NCBI GenBank assembly: GCA_021323165.1
Contig: JAJTCJ010000005.1
Coordinates: 3,056 to 67,055, forward strand
Direction of reading: 5' to 3'
Source: Bacteroidota bacterium
GTDB taxonomy: Bacteria; Bacteroidota; Bacteroidia; 2-12-FULL-35-15
DNA: 64,000 nucleotides
A program made the translations under genes and the position numbers. This document shows, piece after piece, positions 54,807 through 64,000 of the stretch. Numbering within the stretch: the stretch's first letter is position 1; every line of letters starts with the position of its first letter. Below the pieces are notes generated by a model, which searched no databases, was not told the origin of the DNA, and saw only the letters and a program-made list of their open reading frames with translations.

Positions 54807-55937
54807 CTACTTCATAAACTTAAATTCTGTCCGTCTGTTAAGACGATGCTCTGCCTCAGAGCAATCTACATTATTCGAGCATCGATTTTTTAGTTGGGTT
54901 TCTCCAAATCCTTTTGATGTCAATCGTGACTTATCTACACCTTTTGAAATAAAGTAATCCATCACCTTTTGTGCTCTGTCTTGTGAAAGCTTCATATTAG
55001 AAGCATCATCTCCTCGTGCATCAGTGTGGCTATTGATAATCAATTTCAATGATTTATTGGTAGCCATTGAAGCTATTATTTTATCAAGTTTGGGAATAGA
55101 AGCTTCTTTAATTTCTGATGAGCCCGCACTATAATAAATATCCTGATCAACAATTAATTCGGCCTTAGATGAAGCAGCAAAATCTTTAATGGCCAATACA
55201 GGATCCACTTCGTTTTCTTTTGCTAAGGACACCAGTTCGGCAGGTAATAATTCATAAACGAATGAATTACCTGCTTTCTTGAATTGCTTAATAATAGTCC
55301 CATCCGTTTTTGCCATGTACAATTTAGCTCCCTTTAACAGCGAATTATATATCGCAACCTTTTCTTTGTACTCTTCCATTGCCGGTTTAAAATCCTTCTC
55401 CTCCAGCACGGGATACACCACCATGGAAACTTTCTTATCCTTTCTTTCCAGAATCATTTCATAATTTCCATTCTTAGGTCCGGGCACGATCTTCACTGAA
55501 TTCCACTGAATAGTGTAATATGATTTATCAAAATTTGTGTTTTCAGAACCTACATCGAAAATAGTTCCTTTGTATGTAGAAAGCTCAGGGAATTCAGCGG
55601 CAGAGAAGTCGATATTAAAACTGTGTTTAGCTGTATCATGCAACATTGGCTTAGTAAGGAGAAGTGAATCGACAGATATCTCCATCTTATAGGTTACGTT
55701 CACATCCAAGCCTTTAAATTCAAAATCACCATACTTATCTGTTGTGGCGTTGAAAGTTTTTGAACTTAAAGGATCTTTCAAAACTACTTTCTGGTTTTTC
55801 AGAGGCTGTTTCTTTTCTCCGTAAAGTAATTTCCGTGCATAATTAACCGGAGAGGATTTAACAGGAGTAATTTTTTTCTCCTGACCATACGATGACAATG
55901 AGAAAATGATTAATAATAAAATTGTTATTTTTTTCAT
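54807..55937 (-). CDS. OmpA-family protein (N-terminal carboxypeptidase-regulatory-like domain, C-terminal OmpA peptidoglycan-binding domain)
   Basis: C-terminal INSHTDARGDDASNMKLSQDRAQKVMDYFISKGV...NRRTEFKF. Signal peptide. Confidence 0.85.
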   Translation of the reverse strand: MKKITILLLIIFSLSSYGQEKKITPVKSSPVNYARKLLYGEKKQPLKNQKVVLKDPLSSKTFNATTDKYGDFEFKGLDVNVTYKMEISVDSLLLTKPMLHDTAKHSFNIDFSAAEFPELSTYKGTIFDVGSENTNFDKSYYTIQWNSVKIVPGPKNGNYEMILERKDKKVSMVVYPVLEEKDFKPAMEEYKEKVAIYNSLLKGAKLYMAKTDGTIIKQFKKAGNSFVYELLPAELVSLAKENEVDPVLAIKDFAASSKAELIVDQDIYYSAGSSEIKEASIPKLDKIIASMATNKSLKLIINSHTDARGDDASNMKLSQDRAQKVMDYFISKGVDKSRLTSKGFGETQLKNRCSNNVDCSEAEHRLNRRTEFKFMK

Positions 55938-55967
55938 GTATCTTATATTTAATAATAAATCAATTAT

Positions 55968-57467
55968 CTATTTCTTATTTAATGATTGTATAATAGCTCT
56001 GAAACTCTCCAAGCCCGCTTCCAAATTCTCTACAATATCATTTGCCAATACATCAGGATCAGGAAGGTTATCTAAATCCGCTAATGACTTATCCTTTAAC
56101 CAGGTAATATCCAATGATGTTTTATCTCTTGCAATGATCTCCTCATATTTAAACTTTCTCCAGCGACCTTCAGGATTTGTTTTCTCATTGTAGGTTTCCT
56201 TACGCTTGTTACGATTCTTTGGGTTGTAAAGCGTAATGAAATCCTTCAGATCTTCCAGCTTTAATGGATTCTTCTTTAATGTGTGGTGAATGTTGGTGCG
56301 GTAATCATATACCCAGACTTCCTTGGTCCATGGGTTTTTACTGGATGGCTTTCCATCAAAGAAAAGCACATTTGCTTTTACTCCATTGGCATAGAAAATA
56401 CCGGTAGGCAAACGAAGGATAGTATGCAGGTCCGTTGTTTCCAAAAGCTTCTTGCGGACAGTTTCACCAACCCCACCTTCAAACAAAACATTATCCGGTA
56501 ATACAACCGCTGCCATACCGGTTGACTTTAACATGGTGCGGATATGTTGCACAAAGTTCAATTGCTTGTTGCTGGTAGTTACCCAGAAATCCTGCCTGTT
56601 ATAAGTAAGGTCTTCTTTCTCCTGCTCTCCTTCTTCATTGGTGAAGGTCATGCTGCTCTTTTTACCGAAAGGCGGATTAGCAAGCACATAATCATAGCGG
56701 GTACCGGAATCTGTTATAAGGGAATCATTTGGAGAGATGAAATTATCTGAATCTATATCTCCAATGTTATGAAGGAATAAGTTCATTAAAGCCAAACGCC
56801 TGGTGCTGGCAACTATCTCATTTCCAAAGAAGGTTTCATATTTTAAGAATTTCTTGGCTTCTTTATCCAGATCCTGGTTTTCTGTGATCCAGTCATAAGC
56901 AGCTAAAAAGAAACCGCCTGTACCGCATGCAGGGTCTGCAATGGTTTTCATTGGTTCAGGGCGGATACATTCTACCATTGCTTTAATTAAAGGACGCGGA
57001 GTAAAGTATTGTCCTGCTCCACTCTTGGTATCTTCTGCATTCTTTTCTAAAAGGCCTTCATAAATATCCCCTTTATCTTTTACCCCCATTAAGATCCAGT
57101 TCTCTGCATTGATAAGCGCAATAAGCTTATATAATTTCGCGGGATCCTGAATTTCATTCCTGCTTTTTAAAAAGATCTGACCGAGAATTCCTTTTTCCTT
57201 AGCAAGCTCACGTAACATTTCATTATAATGGGTTTCAAGCTCTGAACCGCTTTTACCTAATAATGTTTCCCATGTATATTTTTTAGGGATTGGCATTTTA
57301 CGGTTATGCGGTGGCTTGCTGTATTCATCTGCCATTTTTAAAAACAGCAGATAAGTTAATTGCTGAAGGTATTCTCCGTAACCTACACCATCATCACGGA
57401 GTGTTTGGCAGAAAGCCCAGACTTTGCTTACTATACTGGAAGTGTTTGCTGAATTATTGTTGCTCAT
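55968..57467 (-). CDS. hsdM: Type I restriction-modification system, DNA methyltransferase subunit M
   Basis: HsdM N-terminal domain, motif I DPACGTGGFF, motif IV NPPFG (VLANPPFGKKS). Confidence 0.92.
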   Translation of the reverse strand: MSNNNSANTSSIVSKVWAFCQTLRDDGVGYGEYLQQLTYLLFLKMADEYSKPPHNRKMPIPKKYTWETLLGKSGSELETHYNEMLRELAKEKGILGQIFLKSRNEIQDPAKLYKLIALINAENWILMGVKDKGDIYEGLLEKNAEDTKSGAGQYFTPRPLIKAMVECIRPEPMKTIADPACGTGGFFLAAYDWITENQDLDKEAKKFLKYETFFGNEIVASTRRLALMNLFLHNIGDIDSDNFISPNDSLITDSGTRYDYVLANPPFGKKSSMTFTNEEGEQEKEDLTYNRQDFWVTTSNKQLNFVQHIRTMLKSTGMAAVVLPDNVLFEGGVGETVRKKLLETTDLHTILRLPTGIFYANGVKANVLFFDGKPSSKNPWTKEVWVYDYRTNIHHTLKKNPLKLEDLKDFITLYNPKNRNKRKETYNEKTNPEGRWRKFKYEEIIARDKTSLDITWLKDKSLADLDNLPDPDVLANDIVENLEAGLESFRAIIQSLNKK

Positions 57468-57469
57468 TT

Positions 57470-58087
57470 TTATTTAAATTTCAATATATTTAATATTCGC
57501 TCCCTAATCATTTGACGTTGTCGATAATTCGACAATTTATTTTCAAACATAACTTGCTTCGCCCTCGCAAGCGTATGAGCTTCGGAATCTAACTCAAATA
57601 AACTAATTGAATAGGTTGCTTCGTTTGTAACAGCTGAAATAAGAATTTTATATTTCCCTTTTGACCAATTATAATGATTTTGGGGATTATCATTATATGG
57701 ATGCACAATTTTAAAAATACAATTATCATAATTTGCAAGATCAACGTGCGATAAAACATCATCCTGCCCTTTTTTAGATGAACTATTGCAATATTGGCAT
57801 GCAATCGCTAAATTTTTGGGAGTAAAAATAAATGCTGTATAAGCAGGACGTTTAGGCCCCCCCTTTTTTGCAATGTGGTCTACTTCTGCTCTTCCACCTT
57901 CATTAACTTTTAAACCACAGTAGCAACAGTTGTTATTCTGAATAGCCAATAATTGATTATGAATTGCTGTTTTTATAACGGCCACGTCTTTTCTATCCCA
58001 AGCTCCAGGTCTCAAAGGCATAAGAGATTGTAGAAATAATTCTTGTGCTGGTAAAAGGCTATATGTGTTAGGTATTTGATTAATCAT
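57470..58087 (-). CDS. HNH-family endonuclease (PtuB-like, Septu-type partner)
   Basis: CCYCG...EVDHIAKKG...NLAIACQYCNSSSKKG gives a CxxC / DH / N / CxxC HNH layout. The start overlaps the upstream ATPase stop (ATGA at 58087-58084). Confidence 0.7.
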   Translation of the reverse strand: MINQIPNTYSLLPAQELFLQSLMPLRPGAWDRKDVAVIKTAIHNQLLAIQNNNCCYCGLKVNEGGRAEVDHIAKKGGPKRPAYTAFIFTPKNLAIACQYCNSSSKKGQDDVLSHVDLANYDNCIFKIVHPYNDNPQNHYNWSKGKYKILISAVTNEATYSISLFELDSEAHTLARAKQVMFENKLSNYRQRQMIRERILNILKFK

Positions 58088-59670
58088 ATTGTTTTAAGAT
58101 ATGCATTCGCTTCTTCAATAACTGCATTTAAAGGATCATTGGAAGAAATATCTATTGCTTTAATTGTTTCTAATAATTTTTCAATTTGAGTCTTTTCTTT
58201 AGAATTTTCTGAAATTAAACCTAACAAATCTGTTAAATCTGCTTCTAAATAATAATTTCTAACGGTTTTCAATTTAAAAACATTATAAAGAACTTCTTCT
58301 GCCGACCATCCAAAAGTATCCTGACCTTCTAGAAGCTTTGCTCCAAGCTGCCCATTTTCATTGTTTCTAGATAAAGCGGTTACTGAGGAACTATCTCCTT
58401 CTAAGTCAGAAACTAAAAAATGAGAATGAGTTGTAAGAATGAAATGACAGCTAGAAAATTTTGAAAACACTTTTTTTAAAAAAGAAACATACTTCATTTG
58501 CCAATTAGGATGCAAGCTAATTTCTGGTTCATCGATGAGTATTAAACTGTTATCCGAAATATTCGCAAACATTCCAATAAGTGAAATCAAAAGGTGATAT
58601 TCGCCTGAGCTTATTTCATTAATTGAAAGATTGGAAATACTTTTTTGAACTTTTATTCCATTAAGGTTAATAATATCTAGATTCTCTAAATGACCAATCA
58701 TTTTTAAATCATATGCTGAAATATTATTGGAAAAGAGGTCTATTGATAATATTTTAGAGGATGATTTTGCCTTATGTTGCAAATACCGGTTGTCAGCAGA
58801 GATTTTATTTAAATAAGCTACAAGTTCAACGGTTAAAGATTCGTTTTCCTTAAAATTATTATTATAATATGGTATGCTCCATAAAGGATTTTCCTTTTTA
58901 CGATTTGTGAAAGTAAATTTTTCATCCCACCATTCCTCAAAATATTTTTTAAAATCCTCTACTTTAAGTGTGTTTGCAAAAAACAACTTATTTATTTTTG
59001 TAGTATACTCAACTTTAAAGCTTTCTTCAAATCCTAAAAAAATCAATAATTCTTTTAGACTACCGTCAAAATCAATACTTTCATTGGAAGCATTAAATAA
59101 GTGTTTAATAGTTCTCTTTACAGATGATTTTGTACTTGTTGAGCTAGAAGTGCTTCTAGCACCAAGATATTGATAGAAATCATCAGGTTTTGTGTCTTTA
59201 TAAACAAACCTATCAGTATGTAAAATAGAATTAACTAAAACTTTTTCAGGGTATTCCAATTCATTGGATAATGATTCAAATCCCGTAATTATTTCAAAAC
59301 CTTTTGAGTCAAAGAATATTTTTTCTTCAGGTCTATTTTTATAAAAAAGGTATTCTCTTCTTTTGTTTTTATCAAGCACCTTCAATTTACGAGTAACGAT
59401 TTCATATGTATTATGATAATACTGATATCTTAAATGAATATCAAATGGAAGATTAAACTCTTTTTGATCAGTTCTAGAAAATTCTTTAAATTGTCTGAAA
59501 ATTTCAGCTATTGTACGCAAAATAAAACTCTTACCTGTTCCATTGGGACCAATTATTACAGAAGTGTAAGGCTTAATGACATTTTTAATTTCATTTGCTT
59601 CAGAAAGTAATAAGTCAATATCTCCAAGTTGTGGATGTCCTTTTAATTTAAGATATTCAATTCTAAACAT
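58084..59670 (-). CDS. ABC/SMC-like AAA ATPase (PtuA-like, Septu-type partner)
   Basis: Walker A GPNGTGKS, signature-like SSGEYHLL, Walker B LILIDEPEISLHP, H-loop TTHSHF, with a long helical insert between the lobes. Confidence 0.7.
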   Translation of the reverse strand: MFRIEYLKLKGHPQLGDIDLLLSEANEIKNVIKPYTSVIIGPNGTGKSFILRTIAEIFRQFKEFSRTDQKEFNLPFDIHLRYQYYHNTYEIVTRKLKVLDKNKRREYLFYKNRPEEKIFFDSKGFEIITGFESLSNELEYPEKVLVNSILHTDRFVYKDTKPDDFYQYLGARSTSSSTSTKSSVKRTIKHLFNASNESIDFDGSLKELLIFLGFEESFKVEYTTKINKLFFANTLKVEDFKKYFEEWWDEKFTFTNRKKENPLWSIPYYNNNFKENESLTVELVAYLNKISADNRYLQHKAKSSSKILSIDLFSNNISAYDLKMIGHLENLDIINLNGIKVQKSISNLSINEISSGEYHLLISLIGMFANISDNSLILIDEPEISLHPNWQMKYVSFLKKVFSKFSSCHFILTTHSHFLVSDLEGDSSSVTALSRNNENGQLGAKLLEGQDTFGWSAEEVLYNVFKLKTVRNYYLEADLTDLLGLISENSKEKTQIEKLLETIKAIDISSNDPLNAVIEEANAYLKTI

Positions 59671-59698
59671 TAGTATTTTTAATATTAAGTTTATATTT

Positions 59699-60889
59699 TT
59701 ATATTAGCTTCCCTTCAAACGCCTTTTTTAAAATACTCTGCCTTAAAGCTTCAGCTTGTTTTAAACTATCATTTATACTTTCTTCCATTTTATCTGCTAC
59801 ACTTAAACGATTCTCGATTTCTTGAACAATTAATTTTTGTTCTTCCATTTTTGGAAGCGGAATATTTACGTTAGAAACGTCAGTTTGATTAATACTAGCT
59901 TGGTTAACAGCTTGTTTTGCATTTTTCCTTAATTCTTTCAAACCCCTTTGAGAAGAAAGATAGATCGCAACATATTCTGGGAAAGCCATTTTTAAATCAA
60001 CTTTTACCTTCATAATATTACTCTCAAAAACAGTTCTCTCTTTTAAGTGTTTAACAATTCCACATTTTCCCAGATATGGCATACTATTCACTCTATTAAC
60101 TAAAATATCTCCTTCTACAATTTCATATTTTTCTATTTCCTCTTTTGTTAATCTAACTCTCTTGTACTCGTAATCTGATAAAATAGCTCCCTCATAAAAC
60201 CCATCGATTCTTATAATTGGAGTGCCACTACCATATTCAGTCGATGCTTTATACAATCCATTTTGAGGAGTAGTTGAGAAAATCTCACCGAAACGTAAAA
60301 ATTTCCATGTTTCTGGCAATTCCACATCCTTCACATTCTCATTCGTCAACTTGCCTTCAAAAGCCCATTTCAAAACAGCTTGCCTATAAACCTTTAATTG
60401 CTGCTGTGCTGTTTTTAAATTTTTTATTCCTATATCTAACTCAGAAAAAAGTTCTTCGATTTTGGAAACGATAGCTAATTGAAAATTATCTTCGGGAACT
60501 GAAATCTCATAATCTGTAAAGTTTCCCATTCGGATATAATTCGTTGCTGATCCAAATTGTTTATCCTGATTCCTTTTTCTCCAATTACCTAACAAATGAT
60601 AGTATAAATACTTAGGATATATATTTATTTTATTTAAAACATAGGTTCTTTGATAAGCATCAAAATCCCCATTATAGTAAAAAACTTCTCCGACATTAGC
60701 TCCATTGCCAGGCAATATTATACATTCACCACTGAAGCGTTTTGTTTCACAATACATATATTCAAATGCGCAAGTATAAAAACGATACTTACCATTGGGC
60801 TTTTCGTGATTTGCATCGTATTTGCCAGTTTGTATATTGCATACATCAGAAAGCTTTAACAGCTTGAATCTAGTGAGTATATTCTTCAT
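59699..60889 (-). CDS. hsdS: Type I restriction-modification system, specificity subunit S (two TRDs)
   Basis: Two target-recognition halves are each followed by the conserved helical spacer (LKVYRQAVLKWAFEGKL and LRQSILKKAFEGKLI). Confidence 0.9.
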   Translation of the reverse strand: MKNILTRFKLLKLSDVCNIQTGKYDANHEKPNGKYRFYTCAFEYMYCETKRFSGECIILPGNGANVGEVFYYNGDFDAYQRTYVLNKINIYPKYLYYHLLGNWRKRNQDKQFGSATNYIRMGNFTDYEISVPEDNFQLAIVSKIEELFSELDIGIKNLKTAQQQLKVYRQAVLKWAFEGKLTNENVKDVELPETWKFLRFGEIFSTTPQNGLYKASTEYGSGTPIIRIDGFYEGAILSDYEYKRVRLTKEEIEKYEIVEGDILVNRVNSMPYLGKCGIVKHLKERTVFESNIMKVKVDLKMAFPEYVAIYLSSQRGLKELRKNAKQAVNQASINQTDVSNVNIPLPKMEEQKLIVQEIENRLSVADKMEESINDSLKQAEALRQSILKKAFEGKLI

Positions 60890-60894
60890 TTACA

Positions 60895-62664
60895 TTATAA
60901 CTTGGAAATTATTTTAGAGAAACGATCAAAGGTTTCTGCACTTAATTCAACCTTTTCTTTGGAAATAAATAACATTTGAACCGCCTTATTAAATTTTGTT
61001 TTATCAAATTTAATAGCAGTTTTATCAAATTTCTTAGTGATAATAAGACGTTCCTCGTCAGTAAATAACAATTCGGTTGGGAAGTTAAATGTCGAATCAA
61101 TATCTTTAAGAGTAAAGATCTTATCTTTCAACAAAACGCCAAACTCTTCCAAATACCTCTCCTTAGCTCTAATCCCGTGATCATCTCCATCCAATAGAAC
61201 TTTAAATTTTCTATTCCAAGCTAAATACAAGGCTATAACATCTCTGTTCTTATCAGCACCCATACCAGGATAAAAATTTATTATTTTGTCGCCTCCAATT
61301 ATAATTTCATGCAAATATCTCAACGTGTAATAATCATATTTCCCTTCAGTAATTACAATATCAGGTACTTTTTCTAACAATCCTGGTTGATATTCTATAC
61401 TATCCAAAATGGGTTGAAAATAAGTTTGTTGCTCAGGATACTTTGCCGCGAATTGATTATACTGCATCGCTTCAACTTCGGTTTTTCTAGAATCAAAACT
61501 CATTTCATCATTATAATCAAGGTTTTTGTTTCTTATTATATATGCTCCTGATAACCAATCTGGATTAATTAGATGATGACTATGTGTTGTATAAATAAGC
61601 TTACACTTATCAGCCAGTTTCTCAAACGTTTTTAATAGATTTTTTTGAGCAGTTGAATGAAGATTTGATGCAGGTTCGTCTAGTAAAAAAAGAATTTCTC
61701 CATTATCAGAGGATCTCATTTTTCGAAATTCGGTAAAAAGCAAAAAGGTGAAGAACCATTTAAAACCTAAACTTCTTTCAGCAATCTGAAATTGTTGTGC
61801 ACCTTCTTTTAATCGCACTTCTAAATAATATTTCGTTGGATCGCCTTTCTCAACATTCGGTTTTAAAATAATTTCTTTTCCTTTAGACTCAAACAGGGTT
61901 TCCCAAGCTTGAAATACAGTTTTAGAAACTTTTTCACTCATTAAATTAATAGTAGAATCTAACGCTTCTCTGACATCTTCACTCTCTACTTTCATGCGTT
62001 CAATTAGGTGACTTTTAATATTATAATTACCTCCCAAAGAATCCAAAATATCACTTATAACCTCTCGATATGTTTCTTGCTCTTCAGTTTCATCTGGATA
62101 TTTTTCTAAGTAAATCTTTGAAGGAAAATCAAATAAGAAGTCTGGATAATAAATTATTGGAGGAATTAAATTATTTTGAATATAATCGGTGATTTTGGCC
62201 CACTCCTCTGATTTATGGTTTAAAGTACCTTTCCTAGAAGTTCCAACTACTGATCCTTTGATTGTAAGTGCCCAAGTACTACTCGATTCAGCTTTATCAT
62301 AGACAGAATTTTTAAAACACTTAATACGTTCGATTTCAATCTCTCCTATTGTGTCTGTGATTAAAAAATTTATCGTTTTAGCATATAATTTAATTAATTT
62401 TTCATCCTTAGCATTTAATTTTAAAATTGCCTTTACAGTAACATTATCATTAAAGTTCGACTTGTGATTTTTAGGTATTAATTTATGACTATCTGCTTCA
62501 TTGGTATCATTTTCAAATAAATCAATTGCTTCTAAAATTGAAGTTTTTCCACTCTCGTTTAATCCAACTAATGTTAGTATTTTTGATTTGGGCTCTTTTT
62601 CAAGATCAATTGTAATATTTTTAATCCCTTTATAATTCTGAATAATAAATTTTGAGTAATGCAT
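60895..62664 (-). CDS. Single-polypeptide ABC-type ATPase fused to a TOPRIM-like nuclease domain (OLD-family / fused PARIS-like / orphan GajA-like)
   Basis: Walker A GLNESGKTS, SLGFKWFFTFLLF signature-region motif, Walker B ILFLLDEPASNLH, H-loop YTTHSHH. The C-terminal IVITEGKYDYY (TOPRIM Glu) and LLDGDDHG (DxD) follow. Confidence 0.65.
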   Translation of the reverse strand: MHYSKFIIQNYKGIKNITIDLEKEPKSKILTLVGLNESGKTSILEAIDLFENDTNEADSHKLIPKNHKSNFNDNVTVKAILKLNAKDEKLIKLYAKTINFLITDTIGEIEIERIKCFKNSVYDKAESSSTWALTIKGSVVGTSRKGTLNHKSEEWAKITDYIQNNLIPPIIYYPDFLFDFPSKIYLEKYPDETEEQETYREVISDILDSLGGNYNIKSHLIERMKVESEDVREALDSTINLMSEKVSKTVFQAWETLFESKGKEIILKPNVEKGDPTKYYLEVRLKEGAQQFQIAERSLGFKWFFTFLLFTEFRKMRSSDNGEILFLLDEPASNLHSTAQKNLLKTFEKLADKCKLIYTTHSHHLINPDWLSGAYIIRNKNLDYNDEMSFDSRKTEVEAMQYNQFAAKYPEQQTYFQPILDSIEYQPGLLEKVPDIVITEGKYDYYTLRYLHEIIIGGDKIINFYPGMGADKNRDVIALYLAWNRKFKVLLDGDDHGIRAKERYLEEFGVLLKDKIFTLKDIDSTFNFPTELLFTDEERLIITKKFDKTAIKFDKTKFNKAVQMLFISKEKVELSAETFDRFSKIISKL

Positions 62665-62680
62665 AATTTAAATTTTTCAT

Positions 62681-64000
62681 TTACGCTGCTAACACTTCAT
62701 TTAACTCATTAATAATTTCATCTGTTTGTTCACCAAACAAAGACCAGATCTTGCTTAAACCACCATTTTTATTAAAAGGATCAAGATCAAAATCATCTTT
62801 CTCAAGGTGGAAGCTGCTGGCGATGTAATCCTTCATCATACGGAGCCATTGCATTTGTTCCTCGGAAAACTTTATAGTATTTCCTTGCTGCTTTTTCCAA
62901 ACCCAGTCAGCAAAATTTGTATCCACTGTTTTATCGTAAGATGTTAATGTACTGTCAATACCGCTTACTCTTCTTATCAGTGAAACCAAAGCTATCAGTT
63001 CATTCTTTGCTGAACCGTTTGTTTTCTCCAATTGTTCATAAGCCCGCCATACATTCATTGGAGCAAGTAAAGGCTTTTCAGTCTTTAACTTTTCGCAAAG
63101 GTCTTTGATCATTTTATAGGAGAACCCTCTTCTTCTATAGGGTTGCCCGTAAAAGATCTGCAAGGCTGTAATTTCATCCTTGTTGTTTTCAATCCAAGCC
63201 TTAAAATCAGTAATTGTATTTGTGGCGGAAGCAGCCTGGTCTTTTACCCAGCCTATTTTAGTTACTGTATCCATATTAACTACATCAATCACCTGGTCGT
63301 ACTTCTTGCGGATGTCAACAATAAAATCACGCAGTTCAGGATTATGAAATACTGCAACAGCATTTTCAATTAATTTAGCATGTTCTTTTTTTATTGCCGC
63401 TTCTTTCTCAACCGGTGCAGCCCCGGGCATAGAACTTTGAACCTGAAACTTTAAACCTTCTAAAGAATCAGGGTCATACGCATTCAACAATTGCTTTACA
63501 ATATGATTGATCGTAAATCCATTCGCCTGTTCAGAGAATCTTGTTTTGTCTTTTTCGGAGAGTTGCCTTTCCAAACGGATCAAACGGTTAGCAAGGGTAG
63601 TAAGCATATCCTCAGAAGTATTACCCATTGCAACATGCTGCAATACATCTTTCAATGAAACACCCGGAGCTTTTTCCAGGGGACGGCTGTCGGTTTTCTG
63701 TGAGCTTTCCACACCTATCGCATCAATGATCACAAAATGATCCTTGCTGAATTTAGCGGAAGGTGTTCCTTTGGCTTTTAATTCTTCCACAGAACATGTT
63801 CTCGTTCCGCGTCCTTTCATTTGCTCATAATAACTGCGGCTTTTAACATCACGCATAAAGAGCAATACTTCCAGCGGACGAATATCCGTTCCGGTTGCGA
63901 TCATGTCAACCGTTACTGCTATACGAGGATAATAATCATTACGGAATTGCTGAAGCACAGATTTTGGATCTTCTTCACTTCGGTAGGTGATCTTTTTGCA
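62681..64000 (-). CDS. hsdR: Type I restriction enzyme, R subunit, C-terminal part (gene continues beyond the right edge)
   Basis: The frame stays open from 63958 to 64000 (…CKKITYRSEEDPKSVLQQFRN). Helicase motifs VTVDMIATGTDI and QMKGRGTR. C-terminal HsdR helical domain. Confidence 0.9.
   Translation of the reverse strand, partial: CKKITYRSEEDPKSVLQQFRNDYYPRIAVTVDMIATGTDIRPLEVLLFMRDVKSRSYYEQMKGRGTRTCSVEELKAKGTPSAKFSKDHFVIIDAIGVESSQKTDSRPLEKAPGVSLKDVLQHVAMGNTSEDMLTTLANRLIRLERQLSEKDKTRFSEQANGFTINHIVKQLLNAYDPDSLEGLKFQVQSSMPGAAPVEKEAAIKKEHAKLIENAVAVFHNPELRDFIVDIRKKYDQVIDVVNMDTVTKIGWVKDQAASATNTITDFKAWIENNKDEITALQIFYGQPYRRRGFSYKMIKDLCEKLKTEKPLLAPMNVWRAYEQLEKTNGSAKNELIALVSLIRRVSGIDSTLTSYDKTVDTNFADWVWKKQQGNTIKFSEEQMQWLRMMKDYIASSFHLEKDDFDLDPFNKNGGLSKIWSLFGEQTDEIINELNEVLAA

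Follow-up and report, generated by a model that had tools for sequence, protein, structure and literature searches.

Is the ATPase-HNH gene pair that lies between hsdS and hsdM of a Type I restriction-modification (R-M) operon a defence system in its own right, or a working part of the restriction system around it? The pair occurs in a 64,000-nt stretch of Bacteroidota bacterium DNA (assembly GCA_021323165.1, contig JAJTCJ010000005.1, positions 3,056 to 67,055 of the forward strand), hereafter the window, whose numbering is used for all its features. We conclude that the pair is very probably an intact stand-alone Septu type I system, composed of PtuA and PtuB, that occupies the hsdS|hsdM slot of a six-gene operon as autonomous cargo and is probably co-transcribed and co-inherited with the restriction system. 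It is a Septu pair of a known family, in an already described arrangement of embedded defence genes.

The operon consists of six tightly packed open reading frames (ORFs), all on the minus strand, as seen in the ORF list and translations of the window. Their order of transcription is hsdR, a gene for a 589-aa ATPase-TOPRIM protein, hsdS, ptuA, ptuB and hsdM, with successive intergenic gaps, from hsdR to hsdM, of 16, 5, 28, -4 and 2 nt. The ptuA gene (58084..59670, minus strand) encodes a 528-aa ABC (ATP-binding cassette)/SMC-type ATPase, identified from its ORF, PADLOC, a PDB profile search and Foldseek. The ptuB gene (57470..58087, minus strand) encodes the 205-aa HNH nuclease of Septu, identified from its ORF, PADLOC, NCBIfam and a PDB profile search. 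An earlier note on this DNA had placed such a pair between S and M genes, joined by an ATGA overlap and flanked by gaps of 28 and 2 nt, and the DNA bears this out. The overlap reads '...ACA ATA TGA' over 'ATG ATT AAT', 28 nt separate the hsdS stop from the ptuA ATG, 2 nt separate the ptuB TAA from the hsdM ATG, and Pfam and PADLOC identify the neighbours as HsdS and HsdM. The motifs that the note had listed are likewise all present: GPNGTGKS, SSGEYHLL, LILIDEPE and TTHSH in the 528-aa translation, and CCYCG, EVDH and CQYCN in the 205-aa translation.

The Septu-like reading of the ATPase, also proposed in the earlier note, is upheld by profile and fold searches alike. The PADLOC PtuA profile PDLC00265 matches with an E-value of 3.1e-102 and 341 bits, pairing residues 1-526 with profile positions 1-476 of 479. 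Nine further PADLOC PtuA profiles match at <1e-25, and the best non-PtuA profile, ATPase_I-A, reaches only 1.3e-22. In Pfam, the protein matches AAA_15 and AAA_21. When the PDB was searched with a family profile of 20 PtuA homologues, the top match was E. coli Septu PtuA (8EE4, 1.1e-13). We then compared an AlphaFold2 (AF2) model of the protein (predicted local distance difference test, pLDDT, 81.9; predicted template modelling score, pTM, 0.77) with the PDB using Foldseek. PtuA chains make up all of the best 39 matches, with E-values from 4.6e-14 to 1.7e-8. Some belong to retron I-A complexes and others to E. coli Septu (8EEA, 8EE4), and Rad50, OLD and RecN come only after them. An identity as AriA of PARIS, GajA or OLD was rejected, as the 528-aa ATPase has no TOPRIM domain and far lower scores on those profiles.

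An alignment of the 20 homologues shows that PtuA maintains its catalytic motifs, all encoded on the minus strand. The Walker A motif GPNGTGKS (G41-S48, with K47; 59527..59550) has G41, N43, G44, G46, K47 and S48 invariant, and the ABC signature SSGE (S354-E357; 58600..58611) has S354, G356 and E357 invariant. I379, D380 and E381 are invariant in the Walker B motif LILIDE (L376-E381, with D380/E381; 58528..58545), as are H415, S416 and H417 around the H-loop histidine, H415 of TTHSH (58426..58428). The subfamily comprises more than 1,000 full-length homologues, mostly from Bacteroidota, and is sporadic within the phylum, being found in 4 of 400 sampled genomes at E <= 1e-30.

The HNH protein was likewise recognized as its presumed partner. 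Its PADLOC matches are the PtuB profile PDLC00312, at 1.5e-31, and over 20 further profiles of PtuB; in NCBIfam it has a below-threshold match to TIGR02646 (3.6e-11). A PDB search with a family profile of 14 PtuB homologues places the PtuB chains 9VH1, 22BV and 8EE7 first (1e-8 to 3e-7). The HNH core, C54-x2-C57 ... D70-H71 ... N92 ... C97-x2-C100-N101 (57785..57928, minus strand), was located in the homologue alignment. A substitution of the HNH His or Asn had been feared as the finding that would undo the Septu reading; instead, C54, C57, H71, N92, C97, C100 and N101 are invariant among the 14 aligned homologues. The order ptuA then ptuB on the same strand recurs in 14 related loci.

Relatives of the pair show how it is carried elsewhere. 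A metagenome contig (L081) with a PtuA 71% identical has the order hsdR ... hsdS ... ptuA-ptuB ... hsdM, with further inserted genes, and Ohtaekwangia koreensis (L003) has hsdR, a superfamily 1 (SF1) helicase-restriction endonuclease gene, hsdS, ptuA, ptuB and hsdM. More distant PtuA-like/HNH pairs occupy the same hsdS|hsdM slot in a Cyclobacteriaceae genome (L005/L104) and a Crocinitomicaceae genome (L006). Other relatives are not embedded. PtuA proteins of 51-66% identity with an adjacent PtuB occur in Flavihumibacter (L083), GCA_943372225 (L084), Mucilaginibacter (L001) and a Saprospiraceae metagenome-assembled genome (L002), with no hsd genes in the sequenced flanks (within 8 kb) of these four pairs; in the first two, the pair adjoins other defence-type genes. 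The hsdR-S-M of Sulfurovum (L010) is uninterrupted, and a related PtuAB is found downstream of it, not inside.

The slot itself holds different genes in closely related operons. In three genomes of the same genus, with HsdM at 89-93% identity, the slot is filled by other cargo: PDC-M62A/B in G003 (L097, C8); a 337-aa DUF6615 protein in G018 (L098, C7), where a KAP-NTPase-like 588-aa gene fills the hsdR|hsdS (R|S) slot; and, in G017 (L099, C274), a 527-aa SEC-C/DUF1186 protein, a 109-aa ORF and a 492-aa Schlafen AlbA_2 (HATPase_c_4) protein. The HsdM family is present in 40 of the 400 phylum genomes. We classed 33 HsdM-family loci, the window and its three same-genus relatives included, by what lies upstream of hsdM. 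Directly upstream is hsdS in about 13 loci, an insert of 0.7-1.3 kb in about 7 and one of >1.5 kb in about 12; PtuAB is present in only 2 of the 33. Because the loci vary so in their inserts and so few hold PtuAB, the hsdS|hsdM slot is a cargo hotspot with Septu as one occupant of many. To judge from these sequences, the link of the pair to restriction looks positional rather than functional.

Several results weigh against this reading. The identity of the pair to any characterised PtuA or PtuB is low. A single-sequence phmmer search of the PDB with PtuA aligns only the Walker B/C-terminal half of the ATPase (2.5e-9), with AriA about equal to PtuA, which taken alone is ambiguous; the fold search and both kinds of profile, PADLOC and family, decide for PtuA. 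The Foldseek TM-scores of PtuA are low (0.26-0.41), which is likely due to flexible, mobile insert domains. For PtuB, single-sequence phmmer against the PDB finds no match at E <= 1. Its AF2 model, from a 14-sequence alignment, is poor (pLDDT 61.4), and the best Foldseek match, Ec83 PtuB at E 0.024, is not significant. The substrate (tRNA or DNA) and the trigger vary among characterised Septu systems, so neither is confidently transferable to this pair. Finally, the 2-nt ptuB-hsdM junction is homologous in three distant genomes (the window, O. koreensis and L081), which leaves some room for coupling.

How close might such coupling be? From the gaps of 28 and 2 nt and the sequence between the genes, co-transcription of ptuAB with hsdM is plausible. 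The obligatory co-expression with the methylase proposed in the earlier note goes beyond this and is an inference. No terminator-like site was found on the minus strand between operon genes, and no Bacteroidetes-type promoter (TTTG-N17-23-TAnnTTTG) in 55.7-64 kb, its count over the whole window being no more than chance; both negatives are absences of consensus matches. In DNA this rich in AT, a sigma-70 promoter scan carries no information. Even if the genes were expressed together, the pair need not depend on the restriction system in function, because it has close relatives outside hsd operons.

The strongest competing explanation, which we nevertheless hold to be improbable, is that PtuAB is a guard of the PrrC kind: HsdMSR would hold it inactive, and once a phage anti-restriction protein had put the restriction enzyme out of action, it would be set free to serve as a back-up nuclease. 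The tight embedding, with no terminator or promoter consensus inside, would suit this, and PrrC in EcoprrI offers a precedent; Payne et al. (2024, bioRxiv 10.1101/2024.01.29.577857) discuss this precedent, together with the idea that embedded ABC ATPases act as a back-up. The conserved ptuB-hsdM junction in distant Bacteroidota and the position of hsdM as last gene would then reflect a physical or regulatory tie to HsdM/HsdS, a proposal we consider doubtful to the same degree. The non-embedded PtuA relatives, however, have their own PtuB with no hsd genes within 8 kb, the Sulfurovum pair lies outside an intact hsdR-S-M, and orthologous hsd operons of the same genus hold unrelated cargo. The family is thus not confined to Type I R-M operons, and characterised Septu works without any R-M system (PMC13096335, PMC12819146). 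The guard explanation is disfavoured by the non-embedded close relatives and the variable cargo; if true, it would bring PrrC-like logic to a Septu system.

Still less likely is that the pair is not Septu but a look-alike ABC-ATPase and HNH pair, whether of the TIGR04435 family, of the PDC-M01/PDC-M62 type or a retron-type PtuAB minus its reverse transcriptase (RT). Its identity to solved PtuA/PtuB in structural alignments is only about 13-15%, and the top NCBIfam match of the ATPase is indeed TIGR04435, 'restriction system-associated AAA ATPase' (6e-26). That match, however, scores 91.3 bits against a cut-off of 300 and aligns only residues 340-502. The PDC-M01A and PDC-M62A profiles also match the ATPase (about 1e-20), but with about 70 bits against the 341 of the PtuA profile, which spans the whole protein. 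The retron equivalogs in NCBIfam fall far below their cut-offs (NF041760, 67 against 500 bits; NF041761, 30 against 150 bits). No RT domain was found by Pfam in any of the six operon genes and no Rfam family match at 55000-64000. Because both RT domain and Rfam RNA are lacking, the pair is, as judged from its sequence, a stand-alone Septu type I and not of the retron type. That the pair no longer functions and is decaying, kept because hsdM is under selection, is hardly credible, as both frames are complete, every family-invariant catalytic residue is kept, the full-length homologues number >1,000 and the low GC of the region fits recent acquisition rather than decay.

If this stand-alone Septu pair works as its characterised counterparts do, PtuA would oligomerise, bind ATP and serve as scaffold and switch, and the PtuB HNH nuclease would dock on PtuA's C-terminal helices. 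To go by characterised Septu and retron-Eco7 PtuAB, the complex would be freed on infection, cleave host tRNA-Tyr and/or nick DNA, and thereby stop phage replication. In Septu Ec-B88, defence requires the PtuA Walker A/B motifs and the PtuB residues H75/N91, the equivalents of H71 and N92 here, and tRNA-Tyr is cut in its variable loop upon infection (PMC13096335). Stand-alone PtuAB nicks DNA, and ATP inhibits it (PMC12819146).

The putative docking region is the C-terminal helical tail of PtuA (about residues 451-528; 58087..58320, minus strand), delimited by sliding identity and by the helices of the AF2 model (H457-463, H473-487, H493-504 and H514-527). Compared with the non-embedded pairs L083 and L084, PtuA shows an overall identity of 65%, which falls from about 80% at the N-terminus to 48-52% over the last ~80 residues, and PtuB is 39-44% identical. 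Against the embedded O. koreensis pair, the pattern is reversed, with 8-50% identity in the PtuA head and inserts, 68% in the last ~80 residues and 75% in PtuB. Going by these reversed patterns, the tail and PtuB travel or co-evolve as one module, which fits a role of the tail as PtuB docking site. In Ec78, PtuB is predicted on the C-terminal helices of PtuA in an AlphaFold3 model, and interface mutants lose toxicity (PMC13376987).

Traces of earlier cargo remain at the hsd gene ends of related loci. In L081, all that follows ptuB directly is the degraded 5′ stub of an hsdM, with codons 1-47 and some beyond; after it come a Schlafen-like gene and a second, full hsdM. Such hsdM 5′ relics (L081:10208-10454; L099:6519-6584; L107:2-103; L108:3829-3915 and 1166-1255) cover 22 to about 75 codons, are 68-87% identical to the HsdM of the window and precede a cargo gene and then the full hsdM; L108 has one relic downstream of hsdM. 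The cargo gene after the relic is of the Schlafen AlbA_2 type in L081 and L099. The window operon itself has no hsdM 5′ stub. An hsdS 3′ relic lies inside the hsdS|hsdM slot at L081:4968-5042 and L082:587-661 (60% identical over 25 codons), with a 167-aa ORF on one side and on the other the gene of a 964-aa Ppl-like ABC ATPase. The hsdM relics look like scars left when a cassette was inserted or exchanged at the start of that gene, and together with the hsdS relic they suggest that recombination at the conserved ends of hsd genes swaps the cargo. A more speculative possibility is that this hsdR-S-M operon family is a two-slot cassette-exchange platform with the hsdS 3′ and hsdM 5′ ends as homology arms. 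On that view, the stubs in four related loci would record a series of swaps, and the module of PtuA tail and PtuB would be exchanged separately from the PtuA head.

The GC content is 0.27-0.32 across ptuA, hsdS and the 589-aa gene (57500-62500), whereas the flanks, hsdM and the 3′ part of hsdR lie at 0.35-0.41. This difference fits horizontally acquired variable parts set between more conserved hsd ends.

The neighbours of the pair, all on the minus strand, complete the operon. Upstream, hsdS (59699..60889) encodes a 396-aa protein with two target-recognition domains (Pfam Methylase_S, 1.1e-31 in two stretches; PADLOC Specificity_I, 4.7e-59). Downstream, hsdM (55968..57467), for a 499-aa protein, is the last gene (Pfam N6_Mtase, 9.3e-68, and HsdM_N; PADLOC MTase_I, 2.2e-196). 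Between hsdR and hsdS lies the gene of the 589-aa ABC ATPase (60895..62664; Pfam AAA_15, 1.8e-26; PADLOC), an OLD-like protein whose C-terminal TOPRIM-like region reads VITEGKYD ... LLDGDDHG and whose PADLOC matches are AriA (1e-27), Old (3.8e-13) and GajA (1.9e-13). No orthologue of this gene was found at the matching position in G018. The 3′ part of hsdR (62681..64000; Pfam EcoEI_R_C, 5.9e-39; NCBIfam type I endonuclease, 1.4e-44) starts the operon and extends past the window; in the whole assembly, the complete gene encodes 941 aa (L101 7736..10561, minus strand). There, about 660 bp of non-coding DNA and then a divergent gene lie upstream of hsdR, which makes hsdR the first and hsdM the last gene of the operon. 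In related operons, the hsdR|hsdS slot of O. koreensis (L003:2660-5995) encodes a 1111-aa fusion of an SF1 helicase (AAA_11/AAA_12) with an MTES_1575/DUF559 restriction-endonuclease-like domain, and the G017 cargo also includes a 225-aa DUF433-containing protein.

With this locus, Septu type I and doubly interrupted Type I R-M operons each gain a clear example from Bacteroidota. Embedding of defence genes in other defence operons is the basis of 'guilt-by-embedding' discovery, and in practice the locus serves as material for comparison: among genomes of a single genus, the hsdS|hsdM slot is taken by Septu, by PDC-M62, by a DUF6615 protein, or by a SEC-C/DUF1186 protein with a Schlafen-like one. 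Because the same slot holds Septu, PDC-M62 and others, the uncharacterised same-genus cargoes are good candidates for new defence genes. The co-variation of the tail with PtuB is an evolutionary hint to the docking interface and the hsdM 5′ stubs hint at cargo exchange; neither would surprise a specialist.

Septu type I is reportedly associated with the 2018 work of Doron et al.; E. coli Septu is represented by the structures 8EE4, 8EE7, 8EEA and 8SUX, and Septu Ec-B88 is a further member. The pair shares with it an ATPase gene followed by an HNH gene, all ABC motifs, the essential H and N of HNH and strong full-length profile matches, and a solved PtuA ranks first by fold. It differs in being very divergent from the characterised E. 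coli proteins, and in coming from Bacteroidota and lying inside a Type I R-M operon, whereas the E. coli systems are free-standing. PtuA and PtuB are also homologous to those of retron I-A, or Septu type II (retron Eco7/Ec78 and Ec83 PtuAB): retron I-A PtuB chains are the top PDB matches for PtuB, and many top fold matches of PtuA are from retron I-A as well. This locus, however, has no reverse transcriptase or msr/msd RNA, and its PtuA lacks the retron-specific N- and C-terminal extensions (PMC12819146), as judged by length and alignment ranges only.

PDC-M62A/B, a PADLOC candidate made of an ABC ATPase and a partner, occupies the same S|M slot in the same-genus genome G003. Its ATPase is related in the C-terminal half but belongs to a different family, the window ATPase scoring 69 bits on PDC-M62A against 341 on PtuA. 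The arrangement as a whole resembles defence genes embedded in Type I R-M, BREX, DISARM and Hma systems. Payne et al. (2024, bioRxiv 10.1101/2024.01.29.577857) describe such genes as embedded often in BREX, DISARM and Type I R-M, and Septu as commonly embedded in Hma. TgvAB inside a Type I R-M system of V. cholerae is a tested example (PMC11411939). With these systems, with PrrC in EcoprrI and with the Campylobacter rlo genes, the locus shares the form of a self-contained defence cassette between hsd genes and a cargo that differs among orthologous operons. What sets this operon apart is that its R|S and S|M slots both carry cargo and that hsdM is the last gene.

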